From the NCBI GenBank assembly GCA_030390025.1, contig CM059432.1, positions 77,006,001-77,070,000 on the forward strand: 64,000 nucleotides of DNA, written 5' to 3'. Source of the stretch: Squalus acanthias. Its lineage: Eukaryota. A program made the position numbers and the translations under genes. Below, in pieces: positions 26,801 through 59,925 of the stretch (its first letter is position 1; each line of letters begins with the position of its first letter). The notes beneath the pieces are model-generated. The model had not been told where the DNA came from. It saw nothing but the letters and a program-made list of their open reading frames with translations, and ran no database searches.

Positions 26801-27262
26801 GCATTCTTATGTGTATACGCTCTGTCCCTTCCTGTCACACTCTGGTTATCATTACCCCTATCGCTACCCTGCACTTTTGCCTTCTCATTTTTCTTTGACT
26901 TTTTAAATTTCCGCTCAGCATATCCCTCCCCCCCCACTATTTAGTTTAAAGCCCTATCTACATCCCTAGTTATTCGATTCGCCAGGACACTGGTCCCAGC
27001 CTGATTCAAATGTTGCCCGTCCCGATGGAACAGCTCCCTCTTATCCCAGTACTGGTGCCAGAGCCCCAGGAATCGAAACCCATTTCTCCCACACCAATCT
27101 TTGAGCCACTCGTTCATCTCTCTGATCTTATTTACCCTATGCCAATTTGCATGTGGCTCAGTTAGTAATCCAGAGATTATTACCTTTGTGGTTCTGCTTT
27201 TTAACTTAGCCCCTAACTGCTCATACTCCCTCAGCAGAACCTCTTTCTTTGTCCTACCTTTG
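23837..27262 (-). mobile_element. CR1 LINE, 5'-truncated within ORF1, inactive
   Basis: End of ORF1 esterase (...RALN*), APE endonuclease, RT (VYLDFQKAFDKV, GVPQGSVLGP, FSDD), (TTCTTATG)n tail; frameshifted. Confidence 0.93.
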
Positions 27263-28099: not shown

Positions 28100-30207
28100 C
28101 TTTGTGTCAGTGGCATTGGGGGTGCGGTGGACGGGAAGAGTGGTCGTTGCATGTGCTTGTGACATGGGTCCACTGGTGCAACCTAAGTGAACCTTGCATT
28201 AATAAGGGCATCCCTGGCAGCAATGTGAGCAGCTGGGGGTGCATTTCCCTCATCACCTTCCTTCTCCTCGTCTTCTCCCTCCTCCTCCTCCCTCTCCGCA
28301 TCATCTGATGAGGATCTGAGCTCTTCGCCTTGTTCCTCCTCCAGGTCTAAGTCTCACTGCTGCGCAATGTTGTGCAGAGCGCAGCACACCATGGCTATTC
28401 TGGAGACCCTGGCTGGTGCATACTGAAGGGCGCCTCCAGATCTGTCCAGGCACCCGAAACTCATCTTCAGCATACTGATAGCTGGTTCAATCACACAGCT
28501 GATGGTGAAATGGCATTAATTGTAGCAATGTTGTGTTTCACTGTTTGGGTTTCTGATGGGTGCCATCAAGTTTGAAGTGTGTATCCCTTGATCCTAGCAG
28601 CCACCCCTTAAGTTGCAGATCCGAAGTCATCAGGGACCTTGGACTGCCGCAGGATGAAAGCATCACGGCAGCTCCCTGGGAATCTGGCGCACACCTGCAG
28701 AAATATCTTTTTGTGGTTGCACAACAGCTGCACATTGATGGAACGAAAGCCCTTGCAGTTGACAAATACTCCTGGCTGATTTGAGGGTGACGGATTGCCA
28801 CGTGTGTAGTCAATGATGCCCTGCAGCTGTGGGAAGCCAGCCAGAGCCGCAAAGCCAAGCACCCACTCATTCTGACTGGCATCATCGCAGGCGAAGTTGA
28901 CATAATTGCCGGCCTTAGCAAACAAGCCATCAGTTGCCCGTCTTATGCATTTGTGGACCGCTGACTGGGAGATCCTGGATATGTCTCCGGCAGAGTCCTG
29001 GAAGGATCCGGAGGCAAAAAATTTGACGGCGGTGGTGACTTTGACAACCACTGGTAATGCGTAGCTACCAGGCCCAGCAGGGAGGCTACAGATGTCTGCC
29101 ACCATCTGACGTGACAAACTGAGGCTCCTGAGACACTGCTGTTCAGACACGTCAAGGAAACTCCTCCTCTGCCTATAGAGTCTGTTTCACGGGTAATGTC
29201 TCCTGCGAGCTGCACCCCTCTCTGCTGCTCCCCTCTCTGCTGCACCCCTCTGCTGTACCCCTCTCTGCTGCTCCCCTCTCTGCTGCTCCCCTCTCTGCTG
29301 CTCCCCTCTCTGCTGCACCCCTCTCTGCTGCTCCCCTCTCTGCTGCTCCCCTCTCTGCTGCTCCCCTCTCTGCTGCTGCCCTCTCTGCTGCTCCCCTCTC
29401 TGCTGCTCCCCTCTCTGCTGCACCCCTCTGCTGCTCCCCTCTCTGCTGCACTCCTCTCTGCTGCTCCCCTCTCTGCTGCTCCCCTCTCTGCTGCTCCCCT
29501 CTCTGCTGCACCCCTCTCTGCTGCTCCCCTCTCTGCTGCTCCCCTCTCTGCTGCTCCCCTCTCTGCTGCTCCCCTCTCTGCTGCTCCCCTCTCTGCTGCT
29601 CCCCTCTCTGCTGCACTCCTCTCTGCTGCTCCCCTCTCTGCTGCTCCCCTCTCTGCTGCTCCCCTCTCTGCTGCTGCCCTCTCTGCTGCTGCCCTCTCTG
29701 CTGCTCCCCTCTCTGCTGCTCCCCTCTCTGCTGCTCCCCTCTCTGCTGCTCCCCTCTCTGCTGCTCCCCTCTCTGTTGCTGCCCTCTCTGCTGCTGCCCT
29801 CTCTGCTGCTGCCCTTTCTGCTGCTGCCCTCTCTGCTGCTGCCCTTTCTGCTGCTGCCCTCTCTGCTGCTCCCCTCTCTGCTGCTGCCCTCTCTGCTGCT
29901 CCCCTCTCTGCTGCTCCCCTCTCTGCTGCTGCCCTCTCTGCTGCTGCCCTCTCTGCTGCTGCCCTCTCTGCTGCTGCCCTTTCTGCTGCTGCCCTCTCTG
30001 CTGCTCCCCTCTCTGCTGCTGCCCTCTCTGCTGCTCCCCTCTCTGCTGCTGCCCTCTCTGCTGCTGCCCTCTCTGCTGCTGCCCTTTCTGCTGCTCCCCT
30101 CTCTGCTGTCCAGCTACAAATCTCGAAACTGCAGCCTGGTGCTGGTGCTGGTGGTCATATTGGTCCTCGTCTGAGTTCCAATCTAAGGCAGCCATATCAG
30201 CACCCAT
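28100..30207 (-). pseudogene. HARBI1-like DDE transposase of element D, frameshifted, with an N-terminal repeat expansion
   Basis: QCLRSLSLSRQMVADIC, FFASGSFQ, GFPQLQGIIDYT, KGFRSINVQL, FPGSCRDAFIL, GWLLG. Confidence 0.88.
29209..30108. repeat. 15-bp minisatellite (CCCCTCTCTGCTGCT)n, about 60 units
   Basis: Directly visible tandem array; encodes GEQQR/GQQQR on the minus strand. Confidence 0.97.
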
Positions 30208-30389
30208 CCTAATGAGATTGAGAAAACCTCCAAAATGCAGAAAGTAACCTCTCAGCAAAAGTACTGTGAACAAACCCTTTCCCATGATCAGGTAAGAAAC
30301 CAGCTGTGAGTACTGAGTATTTATTGCAGTATGTCTATGAGATTGATTCAGCCCCCTCAATTGCCACTGTGCTCGCGCCTTACCTTCAT

Positions 30390-33243
30390 TACAACAACAA
30401 CAACAACTTATATTTATATAGCGCCTTTAACGTAGTAAAATGTCCCAAGGCACTGCACAGGAGTATTTTAAGACACAAAATTTGACACTGATCCACATAA
30501 GGTGAAATTAGGGCAGGTGACCAAAAGCTTGGTCAAAGAGGTAGGTTTTAAGGAGTGTCTTAAAGGAGGAAAGAGAGGTAGCGAGGCGGAGAGGATAAGG
30601 AGGGTATTCCAGAGCTTAGGGCCTAGGCAACAGAAGGCACGGCCACCAAAGGTTGAGCGATTATAATCAGGGATGCTCAAGAGGGCAGAATTAGAGGAGC
30701 GCAGATATCTCGGGGGGTTGTGGGGCTGAAGGAGATTACAGAGATAGGGAGGGGCGAGGCCATGGAAGGATTTTAAAACAAGGATGAGAATTTTGAAATC
30801 GAGGCGCTGTTTAACCGGGAGCCAATGTAGGTCAGCGAGCACAGGGGAGATGGGCGAACAGGACTTGGTGCGAGTTAGGACACGGGCAGCCTAGTTTTGG
30901 ATGACCTCAAGTTTATGTAGGGTGTAATGTGGGAGGCCAGCCAGGAGTGTGTTGGAATAGTCAAGTCTAGAGGTAACAAAGGCATGGATGAGGGTTTCAG
31001 CAGCAGATGAGCTGAGGCAAGGGCGGAGACGGGCTATGTTACGGAGGTGGAAGTAGGCGATCTTAGTTATGCTGCGGATATGTGGTCAGAAGGTTGCGAA
31101 CAGTGTGGTTCAGCCTCAGACAGATGTTAGGGAGAGGGATGGAGTGAATGGCTAGGGAACGGAGTTTGTGGCAGGGACCGAAAACAATGGCTTCGGTTTT
31201 CCCAATATTAAATTGGAGAAAATTTTTGCTCATCCAGAACTGTATGTCAGACAAGCAGTCTGACAATTTAGACACCGTGGAGGGGTCGAGAGAAGAAGTA
31301 GTGAGGTAGAGCTGGGTGTCGTCTGCATACATGTGGAAACTGACACTGTGTTTTCGGATGATGTCGCCAAGGGGCAACATGTAGATGAGAAATAGGAGGC
31401 GGCCAAGGATAGATCCTTGCGGGACACCAGAGGTAATGATGTGGGAGCGGGAAGAGAAGCCATTGCAGGTGATTCACTGGTTACGATTAGATAGATAAGA
31501 ATGGAACCAGGTGAGTGCAGTCCCGCCCAGCTGGACGACGGTGGAGAGGCGTTGGAGAAGGATGGAGTGGTCAACCGTGTCAAAGGCTGCAGACAAGTCA
31601 AGAAGGACAAGGAGGGATAGTTTACCTTTGTCACAGTCACAGAGGATGTCATTTGTGACTTTGATGAGAGCCGTTTCGGTACTGTGGCAAGGGCGGAAAC
31701 CTGATTGGAGGGATTCAAACATGGAATTGCGGGAAAGATGGGCATGGATTTGGGAGGTAACAGCACATTCAAGGACTTTTGAGAGGAAAGGGAGGTTGGA
31801 GATGGGGCGGTAGTTTGCAAGGACGGAGAGATCAAAGTTTGTTTTTTTGAGGAGAGGGGTGATGACGGAAGATTTGAGGGAGAGGGGGACAGTACCTGAG
31901 GAGGGAGAACCATTAACACTATCAGCTAACATGGGAGCCAGAAAAGGAAGTTGGGTGGTCAGCAGTTTGCTGGGAATAGGGTCGAGGGAGCAGGAGGCGG
32001 GTCTCGTGGACAAGATGAGCGCAGAGAGGTCATGAGGGGAGATCGGAGAGAAACTGGAGAAAGATGTGAGTTCAGGGCTAGGGCAGGGGGGAACCTTAGA
32101 GGAAGTTTGGCCCAGTGGGCTAGGGGAAGGAAGGCAAGTGGCAGAGGCAGCTGAACGGATGGTCTCAATCTTAGAGACAAAGAAGTCCATGAGCTCCTCA
32201 CATTTGTTATTGGAGATGAGGGTGGAGGAGACAGGGGAGAGGGGTTTAAGAAGATGGTTAGCAGTAGAGAATAGGAGCCAGGGTTTATCTTTGCATTCTA
32301 GAATGATTCTGGAATAGTGAGCAATTTTGGCAGGCGAGAGCAGGACCCAATAGTGCTTTATGTGGTCCAGCCAGATCTGGCGGTGAATGGCTAAACCAGC
32401 TGTCCGCCATATCCGTTCGAGTCTGCGTCCCTTGGACTTAAGGGGTGAATGGCCAGGGTGAGAGAGGGTAATTGTTTTAGTAGGGACTAGGGCATCAAAG
32501 ATAGTGGTGAGGGTGTGGTTAAGCAGATCGGTAGCTGCAGAAATGTCATGGTGAATGGAGGGCCAGAGGCTGGACAGTTGTGATTTCATAAGTGCAGCTG
32601 TAAGAGAGTTGGGAGAGAGTTTTTTCCAGGGGCGGACACAGAAGGAAGTAGGGTTCGGCGGGGGTGGGTGGAAGGGGGATGTGGGTGGAGAGCGATACTT
32701 GGAAATGGTCAGAGATGGCCTTATCTGCAATTGACACGATGGGAGTAGCGAGGCCACGAGAGATGGCAAGGTCGAGGGGGTGGCCGTGAATATGGGTTGC
32801 GGAGTTTACATGGAGGGAGAGATTAAGGGAGGATAGGAGGCTAGTGAACTCAGAGGAGAGAGAGCATGATGAATTGAGACGAATTGAGATGGAGGTTGAA
32901 ATCACCGAGGATGAGAAGTCGTTCAGTGCAGAGGCTAAGGGAGGAGAACAGTGATGATATCTCAGTAATAAAACTTTTATGGTACTTGGGTAGGCGGTAG
33001 AGAACAATAATTTTAAATGAGAGGTGAGAGGGGTGGAATAAGGTGAGTTGCTCAAAGGAGGAGAAAGTGCCGGAGGAGTAGGGGGACAGACCAAGGTGTG
33101 ATTTGCTGATGAGAGCCACACCGCCACCACGGCGATCTGAGCGGAGCAAGTGGTGGAAGGTATAGCCAGGCGGGGAGGCTTCAGTTAAGGGTAAGGTGTC
33201 ATCACCCCTCAACCAAGTTTCCGTCAGGGCCATGATATCGATG
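30390..33243 (-). mobile_element. L2 LINE, 5'-truncated in the endonuclease, inactive
   Basis: ALTETWL, ILGDFN, NYRPISNLPFLSKVLE, LLDLSAAFDTVDH, YADDTQLY, LHWLPVKQRLDFKIL; tail GGCGCTATATAAAT...(GTT)n. Confidence 0.93.
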
Positions 33244-38300: not shown

Positions 38301-39304
38301 TCATCCTGCTGTGCCACTCATCACATCCCCAAAACTCTGCCTTCCCTACCCTACTCCTGCACATCCTTACACCAACTTACCTTGCACCTCCACCCTTCCC
38401 TCTCTATCTACATTATCACTTCCCCATCTCAATAGCTACCCCTCACACTCACCCTCATCCCAGTGCAATCACACCAACTAACAACACACAATGGTAGGCA
38501 CTTGGGTGTTTTATGCAATGTTCATGTAAATTTTCTGTTAATGTGTTGTCAAACATTGAAATCTTTGGGGGAGAAATTCGGTATCGCCCCGTTTGGGGCG
38601 CAATTATCGGCCGGGTGCAAAGTTTAGCGCCTGGCGCTAATTATCGCCTCCGACTGCAAACTTGACCTCTATCGCCCCTGGAGGTGATTTGAGCGCTAAA
38701 TCAGGTGCTACACACCTCTCTTAAGGCGCTAACGCCGAGGAGCAAGGCGCTACCTCAGAGCGCTGGCGAAGCTCAGGTGATGTTAGTTAGCAATGGAACA
38801 CAGACACACTGGCGCCGGCCAGTTTTTAAAGGGAGGGTCGATCTTGCTCTCCATCCACACCCTGCTCATTGCAGCCTTGAATCTCGGCCTGGAGAGACCT
38901 GTACATCAATTCTGTTGGAAAGAACAATGGAGAGGCCATGGGAACGAGCTCAGCGCTTCAGCGACCGGGCCTTGGTGGCTCTGGTTGGCGCAGTGGAGCG
39001 CCGAAGGTCAATACTCTACCCACAGAGTGGCAGGAGGCCATTGCCACGCGAATACAGAAGAGTCTGGAGGGAGGTGGCTCAGCACGTCTCCTCGAGGAGC
39101 CTGGTGCCCAGGACCCACACCCAATGTGGGAAGAAGTTCAACGACCTCACTCGAGTGGTCAGGGTGAGTGGCTGCTTTTCAATACCTCTACATCCCTCCA
39201 TCTCAACTTCACTCTGTGCCCAAACAGTTTAAAAACCCCAAATGCCCAACACTCATCCAAGACCTATGGCCATCTCATAAAACACACACACATTCCACAC
39301 CTTG

Positions 39305-39470
39305 CATGCATTAAGGGCTATTCAACTATGGGAGGCACACCAGGCAAGTACATGGCTGCATACATTAAGGGCTATTCAACTATGGGAGGCACACCAGGCA
39401 AGTACATGGCTGCATACATTAAGGGCTATTCAACTATGGGAGGCACATCAGGCAAGCGCATGGCTGCACA
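39305..39470. repeat. 54-bp tandem triplication in Myb intron 1 of element B
   Basis: gcatacattaagggctattcaactatgggaggcacaccaggcaagtacatggct three times, near-identical. Confidence 0.92.
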
Positions 39471-39780
39471 TTCACTCAGACGCCGTCCTTTTTCTTGCAG
39501 GCCAAGCTATCTCATAACAGGCGCCAGCAGCAACGCACGGGTGGAGGAGCGGCTGAGCTGCAGACCCTCAGCGATTGCACAGGATCGTTGCCAGCCAGGT
39601 GATAGGTGCCGTGGCCGCTGGAGAGGTCGACCCCCTTGGGGACAAGAATGGTAAGTTCATCAGCTTTCTCTCCTCTCTCTCATTCCACTTGCCCCTCACA
39701 ACACGATCATTCGGGAGGCAGAGGAGGTCATAGATAGAAGCTTCAGGGATGTAATTACTCCAAAGAATGAAGATAGATGG

Positions 39781-40476
39781 GTGACGGTGAGAGGGGCTAG
39801 GAGGAGGCGGTCGGTGCGGGGATCCTCTGTGGTCGTTCCCCTCAGTAACAGGTATAACGCTTTGGATACTGTTGAGGGGGACGACCTACCGGTGGTAAGC
39901 CGCGGTGACCGGATCTCCGGCGCTGGGTCCGTCCCTGTGGCTCAGAAGGGAAGGGGGGAGAGCAGGAGAGCAATAGTTATTGGGGACTCAATAGTCAGAG
40001 GGACAGATAGGAGATTCTGTGGCAGCAAAAGAGACTCACGGATGGTATGTTGCCTCCCGGGTGCCAGGGTCCGTGACGTCTCGGACCGTGTTTTCAGAAT
40101 CCTCAAGGGGGAGGGGGAACAATCACAAGTCGTGGTACACATCGGTACCAACGACATAGGTAGGAGAAGGGACGGGGATTTAAAACAGGAATTTAGGGAG
40201 CTAGGTTGGAAGCTGAGAGCCAGTACAAGCCATGTTGTAATTTCTGGTTTGTTGCCGGTGCCACGTGCTAGCGAGTTGAGGAACAGGGAGAGAGTGCAGA
40301 TAAACACGTGGCTGCAGGGATGGTGTAGGGGGGAGGGTTTCAGTTATGTGGATAATTGGAGCGCATTCTGGGGAAGGTGGGACCTGTACAAACAGGACGG
40401 TTTGCACCTGAACCAGAGGGGCACCAATATCCTGGGAGGGAAATTTGCTATGGCTCTTCGGGGGGGTTTAAACTAA
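39781..40476 (+). CDS. CR1 ORF1, C-terminal SGNH esterase domain (5'-truncated)
   Basis: VIGDSIVRG, CLPGA, HIGTNDI, DGLHLN motifs; ends GGLN*. Confidence 0.85.
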   Translation: MTVRGARRRRSVRGSSVVVPLSNRYNALDTVEGDDLPVVSRGDRISGAGSVPVAQKGRGESRRAIVIGDSIVRGTDRRFCGSKRDSRMVCCLPGARVRDVSDRVFRILKGEGEQSQVVVHIGTNDIGRRRDGDLKQEFRELGWKLRASTSHVVISGLLPVPRASELRNRERVQINTWLQGWCRGEGFSYVDNWSAFWGRWDLYKQDGLHLNQRGTNILGGKFAMALRGGLN

Positions 40477-43373
40477 TTTGTCAGGGGGATGGGAAAAAGG
40501 GCTGTAGTCCAGGAGCCAGTGGTGAGTGTAGGGAGGTACTGAGGAGTGTATCAAGGTCGCAGGAATGTACCGGCAGACAGGAAGGTGGCTTGAAGTGTGT
40601 CTACTTCAATGCAAGGAGCATCCGGAATAAGGTAGGAGAACTTGGAGCGTGGATTGGTACTTGGGACTACGATGTGGTGGCCATTACGGAGACATGGTTA
40701 GAACAGGGACAGGAATGGTTGTTGGAAGTTCCGGGGTATAGATGTTTCAGTAAGAGTAGGGAAGGTGGTAAGAAAGGTGGAGGAGTAGCATTGTTAATCA
40801 AGGATAGTTTAACAGCGGCAGAAAGGCAGTTCGAGGGGGATCTGCCGTCTGAGGTAATATGTGCTGAAGTTAGAAATAGGAAAGGAGCGGTCACGTTGTT
40901 AGGAGTTTTCTACAGGCCCCCAAATAGTAATAGAGATGTGGAGGAAGAAATTGCAAAGCAGATTATGAATAGGTGTGGAGGTCACAGAGTAGTTGTCATG
41001 GGTGACTTCAACTTTCCAAATACTGATTGGAACCTTTATAGGTCAAACAGTTCGGATGGGATAGTTTTTGCACAGTGTGTGCAGGAGGGTTTCCTGACAC
41101 AATATGTGGATAGGCCGACAAGAGGTGGGGCCACATTGGATTTGGTACTGGGTAATGAACCAGGCCAAGTGTTTGATTTGTATGTGGGAGAGCACTTTGG
41201 AGATAGCGACCACAATTCGGTGACTTTCACTATTGCAATGGAGAGGGATAGGGCCATACGGCAGGGCAGGGTTTATAATTGGGGGAGGGGTAATTATGAT
41301 GCGATTAGGCAAGAATTAGGGAGCATAAGATGGGAACAGAAACTATCAGGGAAAGGCACAAACGAAAAGTGGAGCTTTTTCATGGAGCAATTACTGCGTG
41401 TCCTTGATAGGTATGTCCCTGTCAGGCAGGGAGGAAATGGCCGAGTGAGAGAACCATGGTTCACAAAAGAGGTTGAATGTCTAGTCAAGAGGAAAAAGGA
41501 AGCGTCTGTAAGGATGAGAAAACAAGGTTCAGTTGGGTCGATTGAGGGGTACAAGGTAGCAAGGAATGAGCTAAAAAAAGAGCTTAGGAGAGCTAGGAGG
41601 GGGCATGAGAAGTCCTTGGCGGGTCGGATCAAGAAAAACCCCAAGGCTTTTTACTCTTATGTGAGAAATAAAAGAATGACCAGGGTGAGGGTAGGGCCGG
41701 TCAAGGACAGTAGTGGGAACTTGTGCATGGAGTCAGAAGAGATAGGAGAAGTGATGAATGAATACTTTTCGTCAGTGTTCACCGAGGAGAGGGGCCATGT
41801 TTTTGAGGATGAGAGTGTGATAAAGGTGGATAGGCTGGAGGAGGTAGATGTTCTGAGGGAAGATGTTTTAGCAATTTTGAAGAACCTGAGGGTCGATAAG
41901 TCCCCTGGGCCAGATGGGATATATCCTAGGATTCTTTGGGAGGCAAGGGAGGAGATTGCAGAGCCTTTGGCTTTGATCTTTGGGTCCTCACTGTCCACGG
42001 GGATGGTGCCAGAGGACTGGAGAGTGGCGAATGTTGTTCCTCTCTTCAAGAAAGGAAATAGGAATGACCCTGGTAATTATAGGCCGGTTAGTCTTACTTC
42101 GGTGGTTGGTAAGATAATGGAAAAGGTCCTGAGGGATAGGATTTATGACCATTTGGAAAGAGGCAACTTAATCAGGGATAGTCAACACGGATTCGTGAAG
42201 GGTAAGTCTTGCCTAACAAATTTGATTGAATTCTTTGAGGAGGTAACTAAGTGTGTAGATGAAGGTAGAGCAGTTGATGTCGTATACATGGATTTTAGTA
42301 AGGCGTTTGATAAGGTTCCCCATGGTCGGCTCATGAAGAAAGTAAGGAGTTGTGGGATAGAGGGAAATTTGGCTGATTGGATAAGTAACTGGCTATCTCA
42401 TAGAAGGCAGAGGGTGGTGGTGGATGGAACATTTTCGGACTGGAGACCAGTTACCAGCGGTGTGCCACAGGGGTCGGTGCTGGGTCCTCTGCTGTTTGTG
42501 ATTTTTATCAATGACTTGGAGGAGGGGACTGAAGGGTGGATCAGTAAATTTGCTGATGACACCAAGATTGGTGGAGTAGTGGATGAGGTGGAGGGCTGTT
42601 GTAAGCTGCAAAGAGACATTGATAGGATGCAGAGCTGGGCCGAAAAATGGCAGATGGAATTTAACCCTGATAAGTGCGAGGTGATTCATTTTGGTAGGGC
42701 AAATTTGAATAAGGATTACAGGGTCAACGGCAGGGTTCTGAGGAACGTGGAGGAACAGAGGGATCTGGGGGTTCATATCCACAGATCTCTGAAGGTTGAT
42801 ACTCAAGTGGATAGAGCAGTAAAGAAGGCCTATAGTGTGTTAGCGTTTATTAACAAGGGGTTTGAGTTTAAGAACCGTGAGGTTATGCTACAACTGTACA
42901 GGACCTTGGTGAGACCACATTTGGAATATTGTGTGCAGTTCTGGTCACCTCACTATAGGAAGGACGTGGAAGCATTGGAAAGAGTGCAAAGGAGATTTAC
43001 CAGGATGCTGCCTGGTTTGGGGGGGAGGTCTTATGAGGAAAGATTGAGGGAGTTAGGGCTTTTCTCTTTAGAGCGGAGGAGGATGAGAGGCGACTTAATA
43101 GAGGTTTATAAGATGATGAGGGAGATAGATAGAATGGATGTTCAGAGACTATTTCCTCGGGTGGAGGTAGCTGTTACAAGGGTGCATAACTATAAGGTGC
43201 ATGGGGGGAGATATAGAAGGGATGTCCGAGGTAGATTCTTTACTCAGAGAGTGGTTGGGGTGTGGAATGGACTGCCTGCTGTGATAGTGGAGTCGGACAC
43301 TTTAGGAACTTTCAAGCGGTTATTGGATAAGCACATGGAGCACACCAGAATGATAGGGAGTGGGATAGCTTGA
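40467..43373 (+). CDS. CR1 ORF2: APE endonuclease + reverse transcriptase, uninterrupted, no AUG before the endonuclease core
   Basis: YFNARS, ITETW, GDFN, SDH, NYRPVSL, MDFSKAFDKV, GVPQGSVLGP, FADD. Start placed at the proposed slippery site; the first in-frame ATG is at 40965. Confidence 0.92.
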   Translation, partial: FKLICQGDGKKGCSPGASGECREVLRSVSRSQECTGRQEGGLKCVYFNARSIRNKVGELGAWIGTWDYDVVAITETWLEQGQEWLLEVPGYRCFSKSREGGKKGGGVALLIKDSLTAAERQFEGDLPSEVICAEVRNRKGAVTLLGVFYRPPNSNRDVEEEIAKQIMNRCGGHRVVVMGDFNFPNTDWNLYRSNSSDGIVFAQCVQEGFLTQYVDRPTRGGATLDLVLGNEPGQVFDLYVGEHFGDSDHNSVTFTIAMERDRAIRQGRVYNWGRGNYDAIRQELGSIRWEQKLSGKGTNEKWSFFMEQLLRVLDRYVPVRQGGNGRVREPWFTKEVECLVKRKKEASVRMRKQGSVGSIEGYKVARNELKKELRRARRGHEKSLAGRIKKNPKAFYSYVRNKRMTRVRVGPVKDSSGNLCMESEEIGEVMNEYFSSVFTEERGHVFEDESVIKVDRLEEVDVLREDVLAILKNLRVDKSPGPDGIYPRILWEAREEIAEPLALIFGSSLSTGMVPEDWRVANVVPLFKKGNRNDPGNYRPVSLTSVVGKIMEKVLRDRIYDHLERGNLIRDSQHGFVKGKSCLTNLIEFFEEVTKCVDEGRAVDVVYMDFSKAFDKVPHGRLMKKVRSCGIEGNLADWISNWLSHRRQRVVVDGTFSDWRPVTSGVPQGSVLGPLLFVIFINDLEEGTEGWISKFADDTKIGGVVDEVEGCCKLQRDIDRMQSWAEKWQMEFNPDKCEVIHFGRANLNKDYRVNGRVLRNVEEQRDLGVHIHRSLKVDTQVDRAVKKAYSVLAFINKGFEFKNREVMLQLYRTLVRPHLEYCVQFWSPHYRKDVEALERVQRRFTRMLPGLGGRSYEERLRELGLFSLERRRMRGDLIEVYKMMREIDRMDVQRLFPRVEVAVTRVHNYKVHGGRYRRDVRGRFFTQRVVGVWNGLPAVIVESDTLGTFKRLLDKHMEHTRMIGSGIA

Positions 43374-44848
43374 TCTTGGTTTCGGACAATGCTCGGCACA
43401 ACATCGAGGGCTGAAGGGCCTGTACTGTGCTGTACTGTTCTATGTTCTATGTTCTAACACCAGCCTTTTACACTTTCAATCCAACTTACTAAATGTCTCC
43501 AGTCCTTGCTCCCTTACTGCCCCCCTGTCCTGACGCTAAAGCCACTCTTGTACCTCCCTGCTTTCAGATAGTGAACCACCAGCTGACCAGCCTGTCCCTC
43601 AACCAAGCAGTGGGAGCGACGCCCCAGGCGAGGAGGAAGAGGAAGCCGGAGCCTCACCGCCTGCGTCTCCCGAGGGAGCCCATGCCCACACTGGGACCAC
43701 GCCTTCCCTGGAGGGGAGCAGGGGGGAAGGGTCTGATGAGGACGAAGCTCCAGGACCCAGCGGGCTGCAGCAACGCCATGGGGTAGGGACGTTCGGGGGC
43801 CATCTCCCCGGAGGGCGAGTCGGCAAGCGAGTCCTGCTGCACTGGACGCAGAGGAGGAGCGCGTCATCGCGGAAATGAATAGCCAGGCCTTGAGCATGCA
43901 CACTGAGCTCATGGGTGCAATGGCAAGGATGCCCGAAAGCATTGATGGACTGGCAAGGAGTGTGGACCACTCCACTGCAGCACAGGCCAACGCAACGGCT
44001 TAGTGCTGCAATTCAGTCACTGGCTGCTGCCATCCAATCTCAGACTGCTCTCATGCAGTCTCAGATTGCTGTCACACAAGCACTGACTGCTGCCATTGTC
44101 GCTGGGTCGGCCACATTGCCCCGGGGCTCTCACGGTGCCACAGCAGGCCAGCAATCTGTGCGCGAGCAGATTGCTCCGGATGCTGAGGTACTGCCCCGTG
44201 GGAGTGCCAGTGTGACGGTCGAGCAGGAAGGTACTGTCCTCTCTTGGGATGACAGCATTCCTGCTCCCACCACTGTCACTTCCCCATTGCACTTGCTACT
44301 GCCTGCAACACAGCCAGCCCAGACTGCTGCCGCCCATGCAGAGTTGGTGCAGTCTGCAGCCGGGCCCTCCAGGCCCAGAGCTGGTCGAGGGCGTCCTTCA
44401 AAGGCATCTGTAGTCTCAGCATCTGACATTCAGCAGCCTTCCACCAGCCTTGCTGCAGCCACTGGGGCCCCATTACGGAGGAGCAGTAGGGTGGGAAGTG
44501 CGCAGGGGATGGAGATCACCCTTGAAGGGCAAACAGTAGGAGGTCTAAATAAATGGTGGCAATGTTTGTAGTAAAGGTCGAGGTTCATCTGATTACATTT
44601 GTTTACTATTTTTGCGTTTTTCTCCAGCTTGTGAGAACCAGTTCTGTAAATTCATGATTTGTTGTGTTTGTTTCTAATTGTTTGTCCTGAATAAATGACA
44701 TACACAGAGTTTGTTAAATAAAAGAGTTGTATTCAAAATTTACATTTTTGGCCTTTGGAATCATTGCAGCTTTGGCCGGCAATAGTGGGTGCGGGTTGCT
44801 TTCCATGATGTTGTTCTCCATGCAAGAAGCCATCTTCTGAGTAGGGGC

Positions 44849-45979
44849 CTAGAAGCGGCTTGTTATCAGCTGTTGACGGACGGCCCTTGCAGTGGCAACA
44901 TTGTGCGCCTCCCTCCCACGTTGGTGCTGCTGCTGATCATCCTCCTCATTCTCCTCCTTCTCCTCAGGTGGTGCACCAATCCCTGGTGGCATTGGCTGGG
45001 TCCTCAGGATTGCCAGGTTGTGAAGCATGCAGTATACAACTATGAAGAGGGAGACTCGCTCAGGTGAGTACTGCAGGGCTCCTCCCAAGTGGTCCAGACA
45101 GCGGAACCGTTGCTTGAGCACGCCGATCGTCTGCTCAGTTATGTTCCTGCTGGCAATATGGCTCTCATTATACCGCAGCTCGGCAGGGGTGTTGGGGTTA
45201 CGGAGCGGTGTCATCAGCCAGGTGCAGAGTGGCTAACCCTTGTCCCCGAGGAGCCAACCACTTGGGGCATGCGGTGCCTGGAAAAGGTCTGGCACAGCAG
45301 TCTGGCGCAGGATGAAAGCATCGTGGCTGCTGCCAGGATAGCGGGCATTGACGGCGAGTATGAGCTGTCGGTGGTCACAGACCAACTGCACATTTAAGGA
45401 GTGGAACCCCTTGCGGTTTCAGAAAACCTCTGCATTTTCATGTGGTGCCCACAATGCCACGTGCGTGCAGTCAATGGCGCCCTGCACCATGGGGAAGCCA
45501 CATGCGCGTTCATGCTGTTTGGCCCGGGTCATGGGGAAAGAGATGTACTGGTGTCTCTTTTTATAGAGGGCATTTGTCACCTCACAGATACAGCAATGGA
45601 CAGTGAACTGGAAGATATTGGCGATGTCCCCAGTAGATGCTTGAAAGGAGCCACTGGCATAAAAATTCAGAGCCACTGTCACCTTCACTGCCACCGACAG
45701 AGACGTCCTGATCCTCAGTTGAGGCTGCAGATCTGGTTGCAGCCGGTGGCAGAGCTCAGTGACCACCTCCTTGCTGAAGCGCAGCCTGCGCAAACACTGC
45801 TCCTCAGACAAATGAAGGTATGAGAACTGTTCCCGGAATACCCTGGGAGGGTAAGGTCTCCTGTGCAGAGGCCTGTTGGCCCTCCTCCCTCTGGCCATGT
45901 TTGCCACTCTCTCTCTGTATCTCTGATGCCTCTGATTCTGCAGGTGCAGGACGACGCCCCAAATCAGTGCAGCCCCCAC
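44849..45979 (-). pseudogene. HARBI1-like DDE transposase of element B
   Basis: [68 protein letters not shown]; contains stops and frameshifts. Confidence 0.92.
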
Positions 45980-48089
45980 AGTCTCTTCTAAATCGATGAA
46001 AGGAAGGTCAACTCAAAATGAACCTGCAAAGTGCTGCTCAGTACCCAAAACTCCTTCACACAGTGTTGAATCTCTCCAGAAGTCTCTCTCTCTCTCAGAA
46101 TGCGTGGTGCAAAAATGTCTCCGACAAATAAAAGCAGGAAGAGGCCGCCTTTAAATAGTGCTCCCCCAGCCCCTTTCCGACTGCAAAACATTCCCCTCTA
46201 CCTGTCGTCGCTAGCGGCAGGCAGAAAGACAGGGGGCGCCACTCAATATCCGGTCCAGGGCGCTACCGGGGCGTTGCATGCTCGACTGACGTCACGATCT
46301 GCGGGCGCAGGAGATCGTAGCGGTAGTGTTTAGTACCGCCGCAAAATGTCTGGACATTTTCGCGAGCAGCGCCGCGCCCGGGCGCTAGTTGCTTGGCGCT
46401 AACGGGAGGCACTAATCAACCGAATTTTCCCCCTTTATTTTCAACAATTTGCCTTATTGTACAGATCTGTGCTCACCTTTGGAAGTGGCTTAGTGAGTTG
46501 CAGTGAATGCTGAGACATAACGGTACCTCCACCCACCCACCCCCCCCGCAATGGTGATGAGTATGAAAGGAATGGCTTGGACTTTGTAGGGATGCTTTAT
46601 GGTGCTGGTGTGGGGTGGTGCCAACCTGGCGCATCACGTGTACAGCGTCAAGTGAAGTAAATCTGGCCATGGTGAGGCCATCGCTGGCCTCCCAGGCAGC
46701 ATTGTTGTCGAGTGCTGTTGCCGTGTCCTGTGCAGCATCAGGTGATTATGCAGAAGGTTGGTGTTGTTGTTGGTGATGTTGGTGCTGGGGCTGATAATGG
46801 AGGGATTCAGAGGACCAAGGTGAGATTTTTTCAAGAGCACTGATGTTGCTGGAATAAATGGCAGCTGAAGCTGAGATGACAGAAGCGATCTGACAATGGT
46901 GAGAGTGGTTGCTGCAAGGAGGTGACAGTGGATAGAGAGTTTACTCCAAACACTTCCAAACTGCATACAGCTCAAAAGTGTCTTCCAAGTCCTGAAGGCT
47001 CAAGTTTCTGACATTGGAAAGTGACCAGCTGTGAAATGGTAGTTTTCATACCACCTTTGCAGCTTTCACCCATTCACAGCAATGGGGAGACAGAGAACTC
47101 GACCTACTTACCTGACGTGAGCTCTGAATGACGTGAACCCCGTTAAAAATGTGGTAAAATAGAAAAAGGCTGGCAAAATAGTAGCAAACAAGCACTTAAC
47201 AAGCAGTTAAGTATCTTAAATGCCTCCCCCACTGATTGGTGTCGGGTCTGTTCTGAAATCGCAGACCCGACATTTGAAAATTACATGGAGGTGGGTTCGC
47301 AGCGGGTTCTCAACCCGGTCAATCATTTCGATTTTGACAGCGGACACGCCTCCAAACCGGCACTCTGAACACCGGCAAAATTCAGCCTAAAATATTTGTT
47401 TAATTTCTCTGCCATTTCCTTATTCCCCATTATAATTTCTCCTATCTCAGCCTGTAAGGGATCCACATTTACTTTCGCTAATCTTTTCCTTTTTGCATAC
47501 CTATAATTGCTTTTACAGTCTGTTTTTATGTCTCTCGCTAGTTTACTCTCATATTCTATTTCCCCTTTCTTTATCAATTTCTTGGTCCTCCTTTGCTGAA
47601 TTCTAAAATCCTCCCAATCCTCAGGCTTACTACTCTTTTTGGCAACATTATAAGCCTCTTCCTTTGATCTAATATTATATTTAACTTCTCTTGTTATCCA
47701 CGGTTGGACCACTTTTCCTGTGGGGTTTTTGTGCCTTAAAGGAATGTATATTTGTTGTAAATTATGTATTAATTCTTTAAATGCTAGCCATTGCTTGTCT
47801 ACCATCATACCTTTTAATGTAGTTTCCCAATCTACCGTAGCCAACTCACCCCTCATACCTATGTAGTTTGCTTTGTTTAGATTTAAGACCCTAGTTTTGG
47901 ATTTAACTAAATCACTTTCAAACTTAATATAAAATTCTATCATATTATGGTCACTCTTCCCTAAGGGCCTCTTTACTAAAAGGTTATTAATTAACCCTTT
48001 CTCATTGCACAATACTAGACCTAAAATAGCCTATTCCCCAGTTTGTTCCTCAACATACTGATCTAGAAAACTATCTTGTATACATTCTA

Positions 48090-48182: not shown

Positions 48183-51032
48183 CAATTCTATATGTAGATT
48201 AAGGTCCCCCATGACTACTGTGCTACCCTTGTTACATGCACCTTTAATTTCCTGATTTATACTCTGCCCTGCATTACAACTACTGTTTGGGGGCCTATAA
48301 ACAACTCCCACCAATGTTTTCTGCCCCTTGCTGTTTCTTAGCTCCACCCAAACTGATTCTACTTCTTGATTTTCAGAGCTAAGATCCTTTCTCTCTATTG
48401 CCTTTATCCCATCCTTTATTATCAGGACTATCCCTCCTCCTTTTCCATTTTGCCTATCTCTTCTAAAAGTTAAGTATCCTGGAATATTTAGATCCCAACC
48501 TTGGCTACTTTGCAACCACGTCTCCATTATGGCTATTAGATCAAACCTATTAATTTCTATCTGTGCTATTAATTCATCTATTTTGTTGCGAATGCTTCGC
48601 GCATTCAGATACAGTGCCTTTAGCTTTGATTTATTTCTATTTTTCCCTGATGTCACCATAGTCACTGATGCCCTATTACCTTTGTTACTCTCGCTGCCCC
48701 TTCCTGACCCACTGCTTATTTTTACCCAAAACTCTGCTCTGCTCTAGAGCCTTGACATTTCTCTTGCTGCTTTTAAATTTACTCTTTCCTGAATCCTCCC
48801 CGCCCCCCCCTACCCCCCAACTTCATTAGTTTAAAGCCCTGTCTACTGCCCTAGTTATTCGATTCACCACAACACTGGTTCCAGCCCGGTTTAAGTGGAG
48901 CCCATCCCAACGGAACAGCTCCCTCTTTCACCAATACTGGTGCCAGTGCCCCATGAAGCAAAACCCCTGCCTCCCACACCACTCTTTGAGCCACGCATTT
49001 AACCTTCTAATCTGCTTATCCCTATGCCAATTGGCACGTGGCTCAGGTAACAATCCAGAGATTATTACTTTTGAGGTTCTGCTTTTTAATTTGGACCCCA
49101 ACTCTTCAAACTCTCTCAGCAGAACCTCATTCCTAGTTCTACCTATGTCATTCGTTCCTATGTGGACCACGACAACTGGATCCTCCCCTTCCCACTCCAA
49201 GTTCTTCTCCAGCTGTGAGGAGATGTCTTTAACCCTGGCACCGGGCAGGCAGCACAACCTTCGGAACTCTTGGTTGCAGCTGCAGAGAACAGTATCTATC
49301 CCCCTGACTATACTGTCCCCTACCACAACTACATTCCCTTTCACTCCCTCCACTTGAATGGCCTCCTGCACCATGGTGCCATGGGCAGCTTGCTCATCCA
49401 TCCTGCAGGCTTTTCCCTCATTCACACAGGCAGCAAGAACCTCATACCTGTTGGATAAGAACAAATGCTGAGGCTCCTCCAGCACTTCACCTGGGGTCCC
49501 CTTACCTGCCTGTGTTGCAGTCACACCCTCCTGTCCCTGACCACTAACCAGACCTATACCACTACCTGTCTTAAGGGACTTTGATCCAGGACTGACTCCT
49601 GGATCAAAGTGTCAGGTAACTCTCCCCCTCCCTGATGTCCCGCAATGTCTGCACCTCAGACTCCAGCTCAACAACTCTGAGCTGAAGTTCCTCAAGATGC
49701 AGGCACTTACTGCAAACGTGGTTCTCTGGGATCAGAATGCTCTCCACAAACTCCCACATGCTGCAGTTGAGGCACACCACCTGCACTGCCATCCCTATAT
49801 GACCCTGTTCTATTTAATTAAATTTGTATTTAAGTAACTTAGTTTACAGTTTAGTTTCTTGACTATGTAATTGATATGTCAGAAATTATGTTAGTAGTAG
49901 GTTAGATCAGCTAGCTGTTCGTAGACAGCTAAATGCCAACAGAATACAGAAGAATTTTAAATGGATATAATGACCAGTTTAAATTCATGGTGGTTTGACA
50001 ATTCGCTTAATATCTATTACAGTATGGGTTTCTCAATGAGACGGATTGAAGTTAGTCAAGTCTATATTAATATGTTATATGGGTAACAGAAACAAAGACA
50101 GACAGGCAGAGGTAGTAAGACTATGAGCAATAGCAGCAGCAACAACAGCAGTAGTTATGGTGGAAATCAGTGGAGCTGTTTAATGAAGGCACTATGCTGA
50201 ACCAAACACAGCTTGGGAGTCAAATAGCATTGGCAAGATCTGGTTACTTGTTATTTTAACAAGAAAATTAGGGAATTTATCAACAGCGATGATCTAGTCA
50301 TTAAAATAGCTTCTAAAATATGGTAATAAAAAGACTTTCTGGGTTTATAAGGTGTTAACAAATAATTCTCTGAGGCAGAAATCTGTTAATATATTTTCTC
50401 AGTGTGTGTACACTAGATAGAATAATTTCAGAATTTGTCTCCATCACAAGATCTGTTGGCAAACCTTTTTGAGTAAAGATTTTTTTTAACTTCTTTTTGT
50501 TGACTACATTTCATCAGGTCGACAAATAAAAGAATAAATTATAAAAGATGTTCACGGTAACATGCCTCAAGATGCCTTTAGCTCCAAGGCGGTATAGAAG
50601 TTCCAGATGTCAAACTAATAACAGCAGTGACAGTTATCTGCAGAAATATCAAAACATTGAATTTTGGGCTAGTGTAGCATGTTTTTGTTGTTTTAGGAAA
50701 TGTTGTAGGAAAAGTTTAGAAGTCTGCAATTGTTACATTTGTTCACTCACCTGTATTTTGCAAAATAAACCAGCTTCTTGATTTGTCATTGACCACGTCT
50801 TAACAGTGTTCATTAATCCCCCTATTGAAAGATTGGAGAAGGGCATGCGGGGACATGCGAGTTTACAGTATCCAGTTCATATTTCAAAGGGCATTGTCAC
50901 AGCCCCCAGGTTACGCTGTTGTATCAGTAGATATTGGACAGTGCAAGTTAACTCTGAGACAGAAGAAGCACGCAGTCCAGTTACAGGGATAACCTGTACT
51001 GCTGGACCTGGGAGAATATCTACAGCAGAGAT

Positions 51033-58015: not shown

Positions 58016-58770
58016 GCTGATGGAATAGATGGCAGCTCAAGTAGAGATGACAGAAGCAATCTGTCAATGAGGTGATAGGTTCTAACAATGAGGTGACACT
58101 GCATGGCGACTTTGCTGGAAACACTTGCAGCCTGTAGAAAGCTAAATCTGTGCTGGCAATACAGTCAGCAACAGCTTCTACCTGAGGAAAGTGACCAGCT
58201 GTGAGGTGGGAATTTTTATTCTACTTTTCATGCTGTGCACTAATCAGCTGGATCAATGGCCACTCAACTTCCGCCTCAGGTTGACAGACGTGGTTCCCGA
58301 GTTGCGTGATTCCCGTGGTCATCCAGTGAACTTTGAAAGGTGGGGTTAAAAAGATTAGCTCGCCCGCCTCTGCCGTTCGGGTCACTGCAGCACCGGCAAA
58401 CGCGCCCGAGGGAAAGGTGTATGGGGGCGGGATGACAGCGGGTTCCTGACCCGCTGCGAGATTTTTCAAATTTCCCACCCAACCTGCCTCCAATGGCACC
58501 CGCACGGACCCCAGAAAATTCCGGCCTATGCCTCTATTAATAAAGCCAAGGATCCCACATGCTTTTTAAATAACCTTCTTAACTTTTCCTGCCACCTTCA
58601 AAGATTTGTGTACATACACCCCCGGTCCCTCTGTTGCTGCACCCCTTTAACACTGTACTATTTACATAAAGTATTTTCAATTCCTAGTTTGGAGCTTCAC
58701 GTGCCAAGAGCACATATTGGGAATTTGGGGCGGGGGTTCATCAGACCCTGCATCACCATGGATGGAAAAT

Positions 58771-59515
58771 CATCCCAGCCCAGTACACCGCCATCCCCAC
58801 CCAGTACACCGCCATCCCCACCCAGTACACCGTCATCCCCACCCAGTACACTGCCATCCCCACCCAGTACACTGCCATCCCCACCCAGTACACTGTCATC
58901 CCCACCCAGTACACTGCCATCCCCACCCAGTACACCGCCATCCCCACCCAGTACACCGCCATCCCCACCCAGTACACCGCCATCCCCACCCAGTACACCG
59001 CCATCCCCACCCAGTACACGCCATCCCCACCCAGTACACCGCCATCCCCACCCAGTACACCGCCATCCCCACCCAGTACACCGCCATCCCCACCCAGTAC
59101 ACCGCCATCCCCACCCAGTACACTGCCATCCCCACCCAGTACACCGCCATCCCCACCCAGTACACCGCCATCCCCACCCAGTACACCGCCATCCCCACCC
59201 AGTACACCGCCATCCCCACCCAGTACACCGCCATCCCCACCCAGTACACTGCCATCCCCACCCAGTACACTGCCATCCCCACCCAGTACACTGTCATCCC
59301 AGCCCAGTACACTGCCATCCCCACCCAGTACACCGCCATCCCCACCCAGTACACTGCCATCCCCACCCAGTACACTGCCATCCCCACCCAGTACACTGCC
59401 ATCCCCACCCAGTACACTGCCATCCCCACCCAGTACACTGCCATCCCCACCCAGTACACTGCCATCCCCACCCAGTACACCGCCATCCCCACCCAGTACA
59501 CCGCCATCCCCACCA
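58771..59515. repeat. 21-bp minisatellite (CCATCCCCACCCAGTACACYG)n, about 35 units
   Basis: Directly visible, highly homogeneous array. Confidence 0.97.
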
Positions 59516-59925
59516 GCAGCTCAATTCTTGATGTGTGTTTCCGCTGCATGAAATTCCATTTTGGCAATGTTAGTTCCTGAAATCTATCCTATCTCAAGTT
59601 CAGCGTCAGGTAAAACGCTCTGAAAGTTATGCATCGTTTGGGAAGTAGGACATTTTTGAACTTTTCAGGAATTTTTCTTCACTGTGAACAAAGGGAGAAT
59701 TACAACATTATACTACTTGCAATTGAAAAGTTGCTTTCTTTTTCTACTCATCAAAGACAGAAAATAACATACTCCATGCCCGATAGAATTTCCCAGATTT
59801 GATACAGCTAAAGTCAGCAAGCATCATTCCGGTTTTGTCAGTATAAGAATCAAACTGTATACAATTTCTGATTGATCAATATATAATTTTCTCAGTTCCA
59901 AAATAGAAGTTTAATGTGTGTTTCT

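Follow-up and report, generated by a model that had tools for sequence, protein, structure and literature searches.

A conserved slippery heptamer at the ORF1-ORF2 junction of CR1 retrotransposons suggests a -1 ribosomal frameshift

We analyzed a 64,000-nucleotide stretch of the Squalus acanthias genome (3.7 Gb; assembly GCA_030390025.1, contig CM059432.1, positions 77,006,001 to 77,070,000 of the forward strand), termed the window below, which contains a young copy of a CR1 long interspersed nuclear element (LINE) with the 3' part of one open reading frame, ORF1, and a second one overlapping it, ORF2 (Table 1). CR1 elements typically end in short tandem repeats without a poly(A) tail, are frequently truncated at their 5' ends, and are flanked by short target duplications. 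By its ORF1 and ORF2 domains, 3' repeats, 5' truncation, and short target duplication, the element in the window fits the CR1 group. One 22-mer of its family is matched exactly at least 2387 times across the genome. In a full-length sister copy (L249), ORF1 encodes 308 amino acids (aa) with paired Cys motifs at the N-terminus, and its nearest named relatives come from sharks and rays. The endonuclease encoded by ORF2 aligns with residues 23-151 of the L1 endonuclease, and no protease domain was found in the element by Pfam. ORF2 lies in the -1 register relative to ORF1, and the junction between them is the subject of this analysis.

Table 1 Features of the CR1 copy, its ORF1-ORF2 junction, and related sites in the window.
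Feature	Position	Strand	Remarks
Target duplication AACAC, 5 bp, flanking the CR1 copy	39700-39704 and 43456-43460		sequence
Young CR1 LINE copy, 5'-truncated	39705..43456	+	~98% identity to sister copies
ORF1, 3' part	39705..40476	+	first ~50 codons lost through 5' truncation
SGNH/GDSL esterase domain of ORF1	~39976-40422	+	Pfam PF13472 E 5e-14; PDB 4c1b 'ORF1-encoded protein' E 1.5e-29
ORF2 open frame, -1 relative to ORF1, 1005 codons	40356..43373	+	stop at 43371-43373
Second heptamer-shaped word G_GGU_UUA, overlapping	40464..40470	+	in only 3/18 lineage rows; probably incidental
Slippery heptamer U_UUA_AAC (TTTAAAC), X_XXY_YYZ phase, in ORF1/ORF2 overlap	40467..40473	+	last two ORF1 codons and preceding base
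Stop-free -1 frame linker, slip site to endonuclease	40473..40601	+	36-92 codons across lineages
ORF1 stop, immediately 3' of heptamer	40474..40476	+	TAA in shark lineages; mostly TAG or TGA elsewhere
G-box GGGGG-AT-GGG, fixed 10-nt spacer from heptamer	40484..40493	+	candidate stimulator
APE-type endonuclease	40602..41213	+	YFNARS 40602, ITETW 40683, GDFN 41001, SDH 41205; Pfam PF03372 E 2.7e-23
Reverse transcriptase domain	42054..42773	+	FADD at 42549; Pfam PF00078 E 6.3e-37
Terminal short tandem repeats in place of poly(A) tail	43420..43456	+	sequence
Heptamer with stop, closing ORF1 in a decayed CR1 copy, older and diverged	26942..26950	-	
Heptamer with stop, closing ORF1 in a further decayed CR1 copy, then UAAUG overlap	48827..48835	-	

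The 3' end of ORF1 reads GGT TTA AAC TAA (40465-40476). Frameshifting to the -1 frame at U_UUA_AAC is textbook knowledge for viruses, and a first-pass annotation of the window had proposed that the TTTAAAC within this end serves the same purpose here. The sequence bears out the X_XXY_YYZ phase of the heptamer, the opening of ORF2 in the -1 register, and the presence of G-runs about 10 nucleotides (nt) downstream, the first of which starts at 40484 after a spacer of 10 nt. It also bears out that the first in-frame ATG of ORF2, at 40965, lies behind the endonuclease motifs YFNARS and ITETW; a start there would remove what aligns with residues 23 to ~131 of the L1 endonuclease, ITETW included. 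Another ATG, at 40450, belongs to the ORF1 frame and occurs in this copy alone, the other 29 of 30 loci having ACG. A detail that requires revision is the junction peptide FKLIC, of which FKL is only conceptual: because the Leu and Asn tRNAs would already be bound when they slip in tandem, as in the established mechanism, the product should carry Leu-Asn and then Leu-Ile-Cys from 40473.

A single heptamer of this kind is not rare and could be due to chance; in this copy alone there are four in-phase heptamer-shaped words in ORF1 and four in ORF2. The word TTTAAACTA occurs three times in the window (0.80 expected; three of 100 shuffles reach that number), and all three occurrences are the ORF1 ends of different CR1 copies. 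What raises the site above chance is that the heptamer is conserved across lineages. We compared 17 lineage representatives, ten from sharks, five of bird type, and two more distant, with esterase identities of 22-95% (22-55% between groups). A hoatzin sequence belongs to the 90% cluster of a protein that the bird-type rows resemble, and L156, another of the lineage rows, is closest to sea-cucumber proteins (53-55% identity). The last two codons of ORF1 are TTA in 17/17 and AAC in 17/17 representatives, and the synonymous variation that would have spoken against the first-pass annotation was thus absent, in elements in which TTA accounts for 14% of Leu codons and AAC for 39% of Asn codons. Among 36 other near-invariant columns taken as controls, one (a Cys) showed a single codon. 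Immediately 5' of TTA, 17 of 18 rows have a T even though the codon to which this base belongs varies (Gly, Asp, Ala, Cys, or Ser), so that U_UUA_AAC is present in 17 of the 18 lineage rows, the exception being G_UUA_AAC in L156. U_UUA_AAC ranks among the most shift-prone heptamers on mammalian ribosomes, and G_UU(A) is a natural slippery variant, that first triplet being given for equine arteritis virus (PMC5009743). At the protein level, Leu-Asn forms the C-terminus of 35 out of 45 ORF1 homologs, with sharks, rays, Xenopus, tortoise, and hoatzin among the sources. In these alignments, the heptamer is conserved at the nucleotide level beyond what the protein requires.

Such a pattern could in principle be a by-product of protein constraint or shared ancestry, if the ORF1 protein needs its terminal Leu-Asn and ORF2 needs a Gly-x-Gly. 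The terminal Asn is invariant in a 21-protein alignment, the elements are G-rich on their sense strand, and the lineages do share ancestry. However, invariant Leu, Asn, and Gly positions elsewhere draw on several codons (35 of the 36 controls), the third codon position at +11 is G in 18/18 rows though the residue varies, and ORF2 of the lineages without an AUG would be left with no start at all. We consider this explanation very unlikely.

The register between the two frames was examined in copies gathered from the genome of this shark, either through similarity to the ORF1 protein or with DNA of the family, and in metagenome contigs found by protein pattern, using as anchors the esterase profile without its last residues and the endonuclease. 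An in-frame stop close by together with an endonuclease match was present in 181 of 213 rows, these 181 comprising 164 distinct copies in 21 clusters. TTTAAAC stands directly 5' of the stop in 150 of these 164 copies, and for 142 the endonuclease keeps the -1 register. The modal distance from stop to endonuclease corresponds to -1 in 17 of the 21 clusters, with ten values of 110-278 nt plus one deleted copy. We also drew an unselected sample of 100 copies in genome order, found by a 22-mer 551 nt downstream of the junction: 58 reach the junction, of which 56 read TTTAAACTAA, one has an altered stop, and one could not be located, and the -1 register is kept in 54 of 56 measurable copies. A variable register, which the first-pass annotation had named as evidence against frameshifting, is thus not what these samples show. 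Both remaining linker frames contain stops in 17/17 lineage rows, and in most clusters the -1 frame opens just 10-22 nt ahead of the ORF1 stop.

In some lineages, decayed copies (L168, L169, L171, L192-L198, L207, and others) often differ in the length of the G-run immediately upstream of the heptamer. Such a length change fuses ORF1 with ORF2 in frame at the DNA level, giving open frames of up to 1290 aa.

The same samples bear on two further explanations. If the CTAAT...CAG after the heptamer were a branch point and acceptor, splicing could join an upstream AUG-containing exon to ORF2, and an AG does occur within ten bases past the stop in most lineages. Nevertheless, a polypyrimidine tract is absent, none of the 100 unselected genomic copies has an upstream segment of the element joined at the site, and of 30 copies chosen solely through the linker, 28 are colinear and 2 truncated. 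The listed contigs of X1, X5, and X17 (three of four runs) are likewise colinear across the junction with no GT..AG joint, their RNA status being a guess and contigs tending to drop rare forms; one bridging contig has a linker 21 nt longer with the frame kept. Splicing is thus extremely unlikely. The other explanation is an internal promoter giving a separate ORF2 transcript, as TTTAAA and the G-box resemble a TATA-like box and a GC box. A mild excess of 5' ends near the junction (12/64 versus ~7 expected, P = 0.055) fits this possibility, yet these ends are scattered without a shared start, such a transcript from the family of this copy would lack an AUG ahead of the endonuclease, and a promoter has no need of the codon phase of the heptamer. 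We regard it as extremely improbable as well. The 5' ends had also suggested a truncation hotspot at the junction (-90 to +30 of the ORF1 stop) in a first sample (10/30); with the above count of 12/64 in 100 further copies (L287-L386), it was not established.

Downstream of the heptamer, a G-rich motif (the G-box, GGGGG-AN-GGG in its general form) is conserved across lineages at a fixed distance. In a gapless alignment on the heptamer, G occupies positions +11 to +15 in 18, 18, 17, 17, and 16 of 18 rows and position +18 in 17/18, whereas positions +4 to +9 vary. Two of the fixed positions are third codon positions of ORF2, for which the linker background is 28% G, and the G-box is intact in 51 of 57 unselected copies. 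The first-pass annotation had suggested a G-quadruplex as a possible stimulator, and in this respect it is not upheld: this copy has three GGG tracts (40484, 40491, and 40499) rather than four, no lineage has four (0/18 rows between +10 and +45, which also led us to reject a canonical quadruplex as the conserved element), and the spacer exceeds the reported quadruplex optimum, although the G-box itself is real and conserved. G4Hunter scores are 0.92-2.0, the junction segment falls in the top 3.2% in 17/18 rows, and two-tier folds are predicted in 6/18. A pyrimidine patch ~630 nt upstream could pair with the G-box over long range: among the 9 rows in which the motif was detected, it ranks within the top 2.5% of segments in 7, and in 8 rows it was not located. 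Its pairing register shifts and it encodes Pro/Leu, making it a weak lead. We weakly infer, and somewhat favor, a role of the G-box as stimulator of slippage. It may tentatively be regarded as a protein-binding site, by analogy with a viral case discussed below; this idea is overall rather doubtful, and we still prefer it to a two-tier quadruplex or a long-range duplex. Separately, some bird-type rows (L123:1236-1290 and L133) show a 6-10-bp hairpin ~27 nt past the heptamer that is not found in shark rows.

Taken together, we consider it quite likely, on the basis of these sequence comparisons, that a -1 frameshift at U_UUA_AAC yields an ORF1-ORF2 fusion protein. The majority of ribosomes would terminate at the UAA and release the ORF1 protein (308 aa in the full copy), while in a minority the Leu and Asn tRNAs would move from UUA-AAC to UUU-AAA, likely assisted by the G-box 10 nt downstream. 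The slipped ribosomes would continue through the linker of 36-92 codons into the endonuclease and reverse transcriptase, producing a fusion of ~1,274 aa (308 + 966), and the frequency of slipping would set the ratio of ORF1 protein to reverse transcriptase in the manner of gag-pol. The conserved signal is real, and the frameshift would represent a variant of a known mechanism.

Several observations weigh against this conclusion. The lineages are related, forming ~7 groups in the tree, and the counts given above are not independent. In the group of L156 and the sea-cucumber-like elements, the ORF1 proteins (P0066-P0080) end with Ser-Asn in 8/22 cases and with Leu-Asn in 8/22, at the protein level. 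Thirty-two of the 213 rows were dropped for want of a nearby in-frame stop or an endonuclease match, 22 of the 164 copies are out of register, and the modal distance is not -1 in 4 of the 21 clusters; these four clusters are decayed, and the exceptions that were inspected have stops or changes in G-run length. A stop-free -1 linker is seen in 15/17 lineage rows, a figure biased upward since the shark representatives were chosen as intact copies, and in 5/7 of the unpicked metagenome rows. Among nested folds, neither a conserved hairpin nor a pseudoknot was seen downstream of the site (z-scores of -1.5 to +1.1 in 18 rows), and a conserved hairpin stimulator is rejected, as the 18 rows share no such fold. 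The usual spacer between heptamer and stimulator is 5-9 nt (PMC7618472). Finally, some lineages have an AUG close to the stop: one shark lineage (the L092 family, e.g. L082 and L092) has an in-frame UAAUG in 22/23 copies, and three of the five bird-type rows have an AUG at +5. Apart from these points, we note that in the sea-cucumber-like Ser-Asn proteins the Asn is kept and the Leu is not.

The AUG-bearing lineages bring in termination-reinitiation, in which ribosomes would stop at the UAA and restart nearby in the -1 frame at an AUG or another codon, the heptamer and the G-box forming a reinitiation signal and the ORF2 protein being separate. This is the mechanism reported for SART1, with its UAAUG, and for L1 (PMC3708506, PMC2881922, PMC3894237), and it would equally predict a fixed linker register; in addition, the +2 codon in the family of this copy is the near-cognate ATT. 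On the other hand, the +2 codon is free to vary (ATT, ATA, ATG, ACT, AAT, AAA, GAC, GGT, GAT, GCT, GTA, or AAG), and reinitiation leaves unexplained why what is fixed is a heptamer in X_XXY_YYZ phase that deviates only once, and then to a known slippery variant. An AUG overlapping or beside the ORF1 stop is not a conserved feature, being found at +2 in 1/17 and at +5 in 3/17 lineage rows. Five of the 17 lineages have no Met before the endonuclease, which also speaks against reinitiation at an AUG and is about the number expected from a Met frequency of 2.3% over 36-92 codons; where a Met does precede the endonuclease in other lineages, its position scatters. In the CR1 family of this copy, no AUG in the -1 frame precedes the endonuclease in 51 of 54 in-register copies, and the remaining three have single upstream AUGs. 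The third observation that the first-pass annotation would have counted against frameshifting, an AUG ahead of the endonuclease in the family, is thus not made either, and its frameshift interpretation is supported; some sister lineages carry an AUG beside the stop. As a general explanation of the junction, we judge reinitiation unlikely; in the AUG-bearing lineages, it may operate, either by itself or as an additional route. In the L092 family and at window position 48827 (minus strand), an in-frame UAAUG is found together with the heptamer, and both routes could be possible in one element.

On one side of the CR1 copy, an open reading frame for a Myb/SANT-like protein (PF13873) is found at 38693-39232 (plus strand), and on the other, a broken DDE_Tnp_4 transposase (PF13359) at 44849-46012 (minus strand), a pair characteristic of DNA transposons of the Harbinger/PIF type. 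A unit of ~59 nt is present in three near-identical head-to-tail copies immediately 5' of the insertion (39295-39465). Two long short-tandem-repeat arrays (28940-30430 and 58650-59590) yield spurious open frames.

How LINEs translate ORF2 is considered an open and important question (PMC3894237). The LINE cases tested so far use reinitiation, and reviews of LINE translation discuss reinitiation and internal ribosome entry sites; the available parts of these reviews contain no 'frameshift' (PMC2881922) or propose none (PMC3894237). We found no paper on a CR1 frameshift in the literature searched for CR1/LINE frameshifting, the founding CR1 papers and Repbase entries lying outside its coverage and possibly mentioning an overlap or a frameshift, and 'CR1' does not occur in the first 300,000 of the 449,034 characters of the Atkins 2016 review. 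In the chicken genome, no repeat is more abundant than CR1 (11.8%; PMC11835228), which is also plentiful in this shark. If the proposed frameshift is correct, the CR1 enzyme would be an ORF1-ORF2 fusion, annotations that place the ORF2 start at the first Met would be wrong, running CR1 in cells would require the native junction, and a natural frameshift signal without a stem would be added to those known. A wider proposal, which is possible and on balance improbable, is that CR1 elements from sharks to birds, and perhaps their echinoderm-like relatives, retain a gag-pol-like -1 shift stimulated by the G-box rather than by an RNA structure, with a host G-run binder or the ORF1 protein itself attached to that motif, as a G-rich counterpart of the viral signal described below; the active enzyme would be an esterase-endonuclease-reverse transcriptase fusion whose level could be regulated in trans.

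Among known systems, the retroviral gag-pol and coronavirus 1a/1b junctions have in common with CR1 the class of heptamer, its phase, and the -1 register, and they fuse a structural or RNA-binding protein to a polymerase at a set ratio (PMC5009743). CR1 differs in being a LINE with no protease by Pfam, in lacking a hairpin or pseudoknot 5-9 nt downstream, and in having its stop directly after the heptamer. Among retrotransposons, a -1 frameshift is stated for Dictyostelium TRE5-A and TRE3-A in the legend of a review, the legend giving neither slippery sequence nor experiment (PMC5911963), and these elements differ in ORF1 and in host kingdom; for Paramecium elements, +1 frameshifting or reinitiation has been suggested (PMC5405496). 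SART1, with UAAUG as in one CR1 lineage, and human L1 likewise have a bicistronic LINE RNA in which ORF2 output depends on the translation of ORF1 (PMC3708506, PMC2881922, PMC3894237), whereas their ORF2 protein is separate; in CR1 the conserved element is the heptamer and the AUG is not conserved. Synthetic G-quadruplex reporters combine UUUAAAC with a G-rich 3' element, as CR1 does, but with four G3 tracts and an optimum spacer of 6-8 nt (PMC3919603), in contrast to the 1-3 GGG tracts and the 10 nt of CR1, and according to a review of 2016, no natural use of quadruplex-stimulated frameshifting was known at the time (PMC5009743). The layout of the CR1 junction resembles that of the -2/-1 frameshift in nsp2 of the pig virus PRRSV, in which a heptamer is followed, at a 10-nt spacer, by a homopolymer-rich motif without RNA structure; the viral motif is bound by nsp1beta and PCBP and is active at 9-11 nt, with longer spacers favoring -1 (PMC4937337). 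In CR1, too, the motif is short and unstructured and its spacer is fixed at about 10 nt; it is G-rich where the viral motif is C-rich, the likeness being one of layout only.

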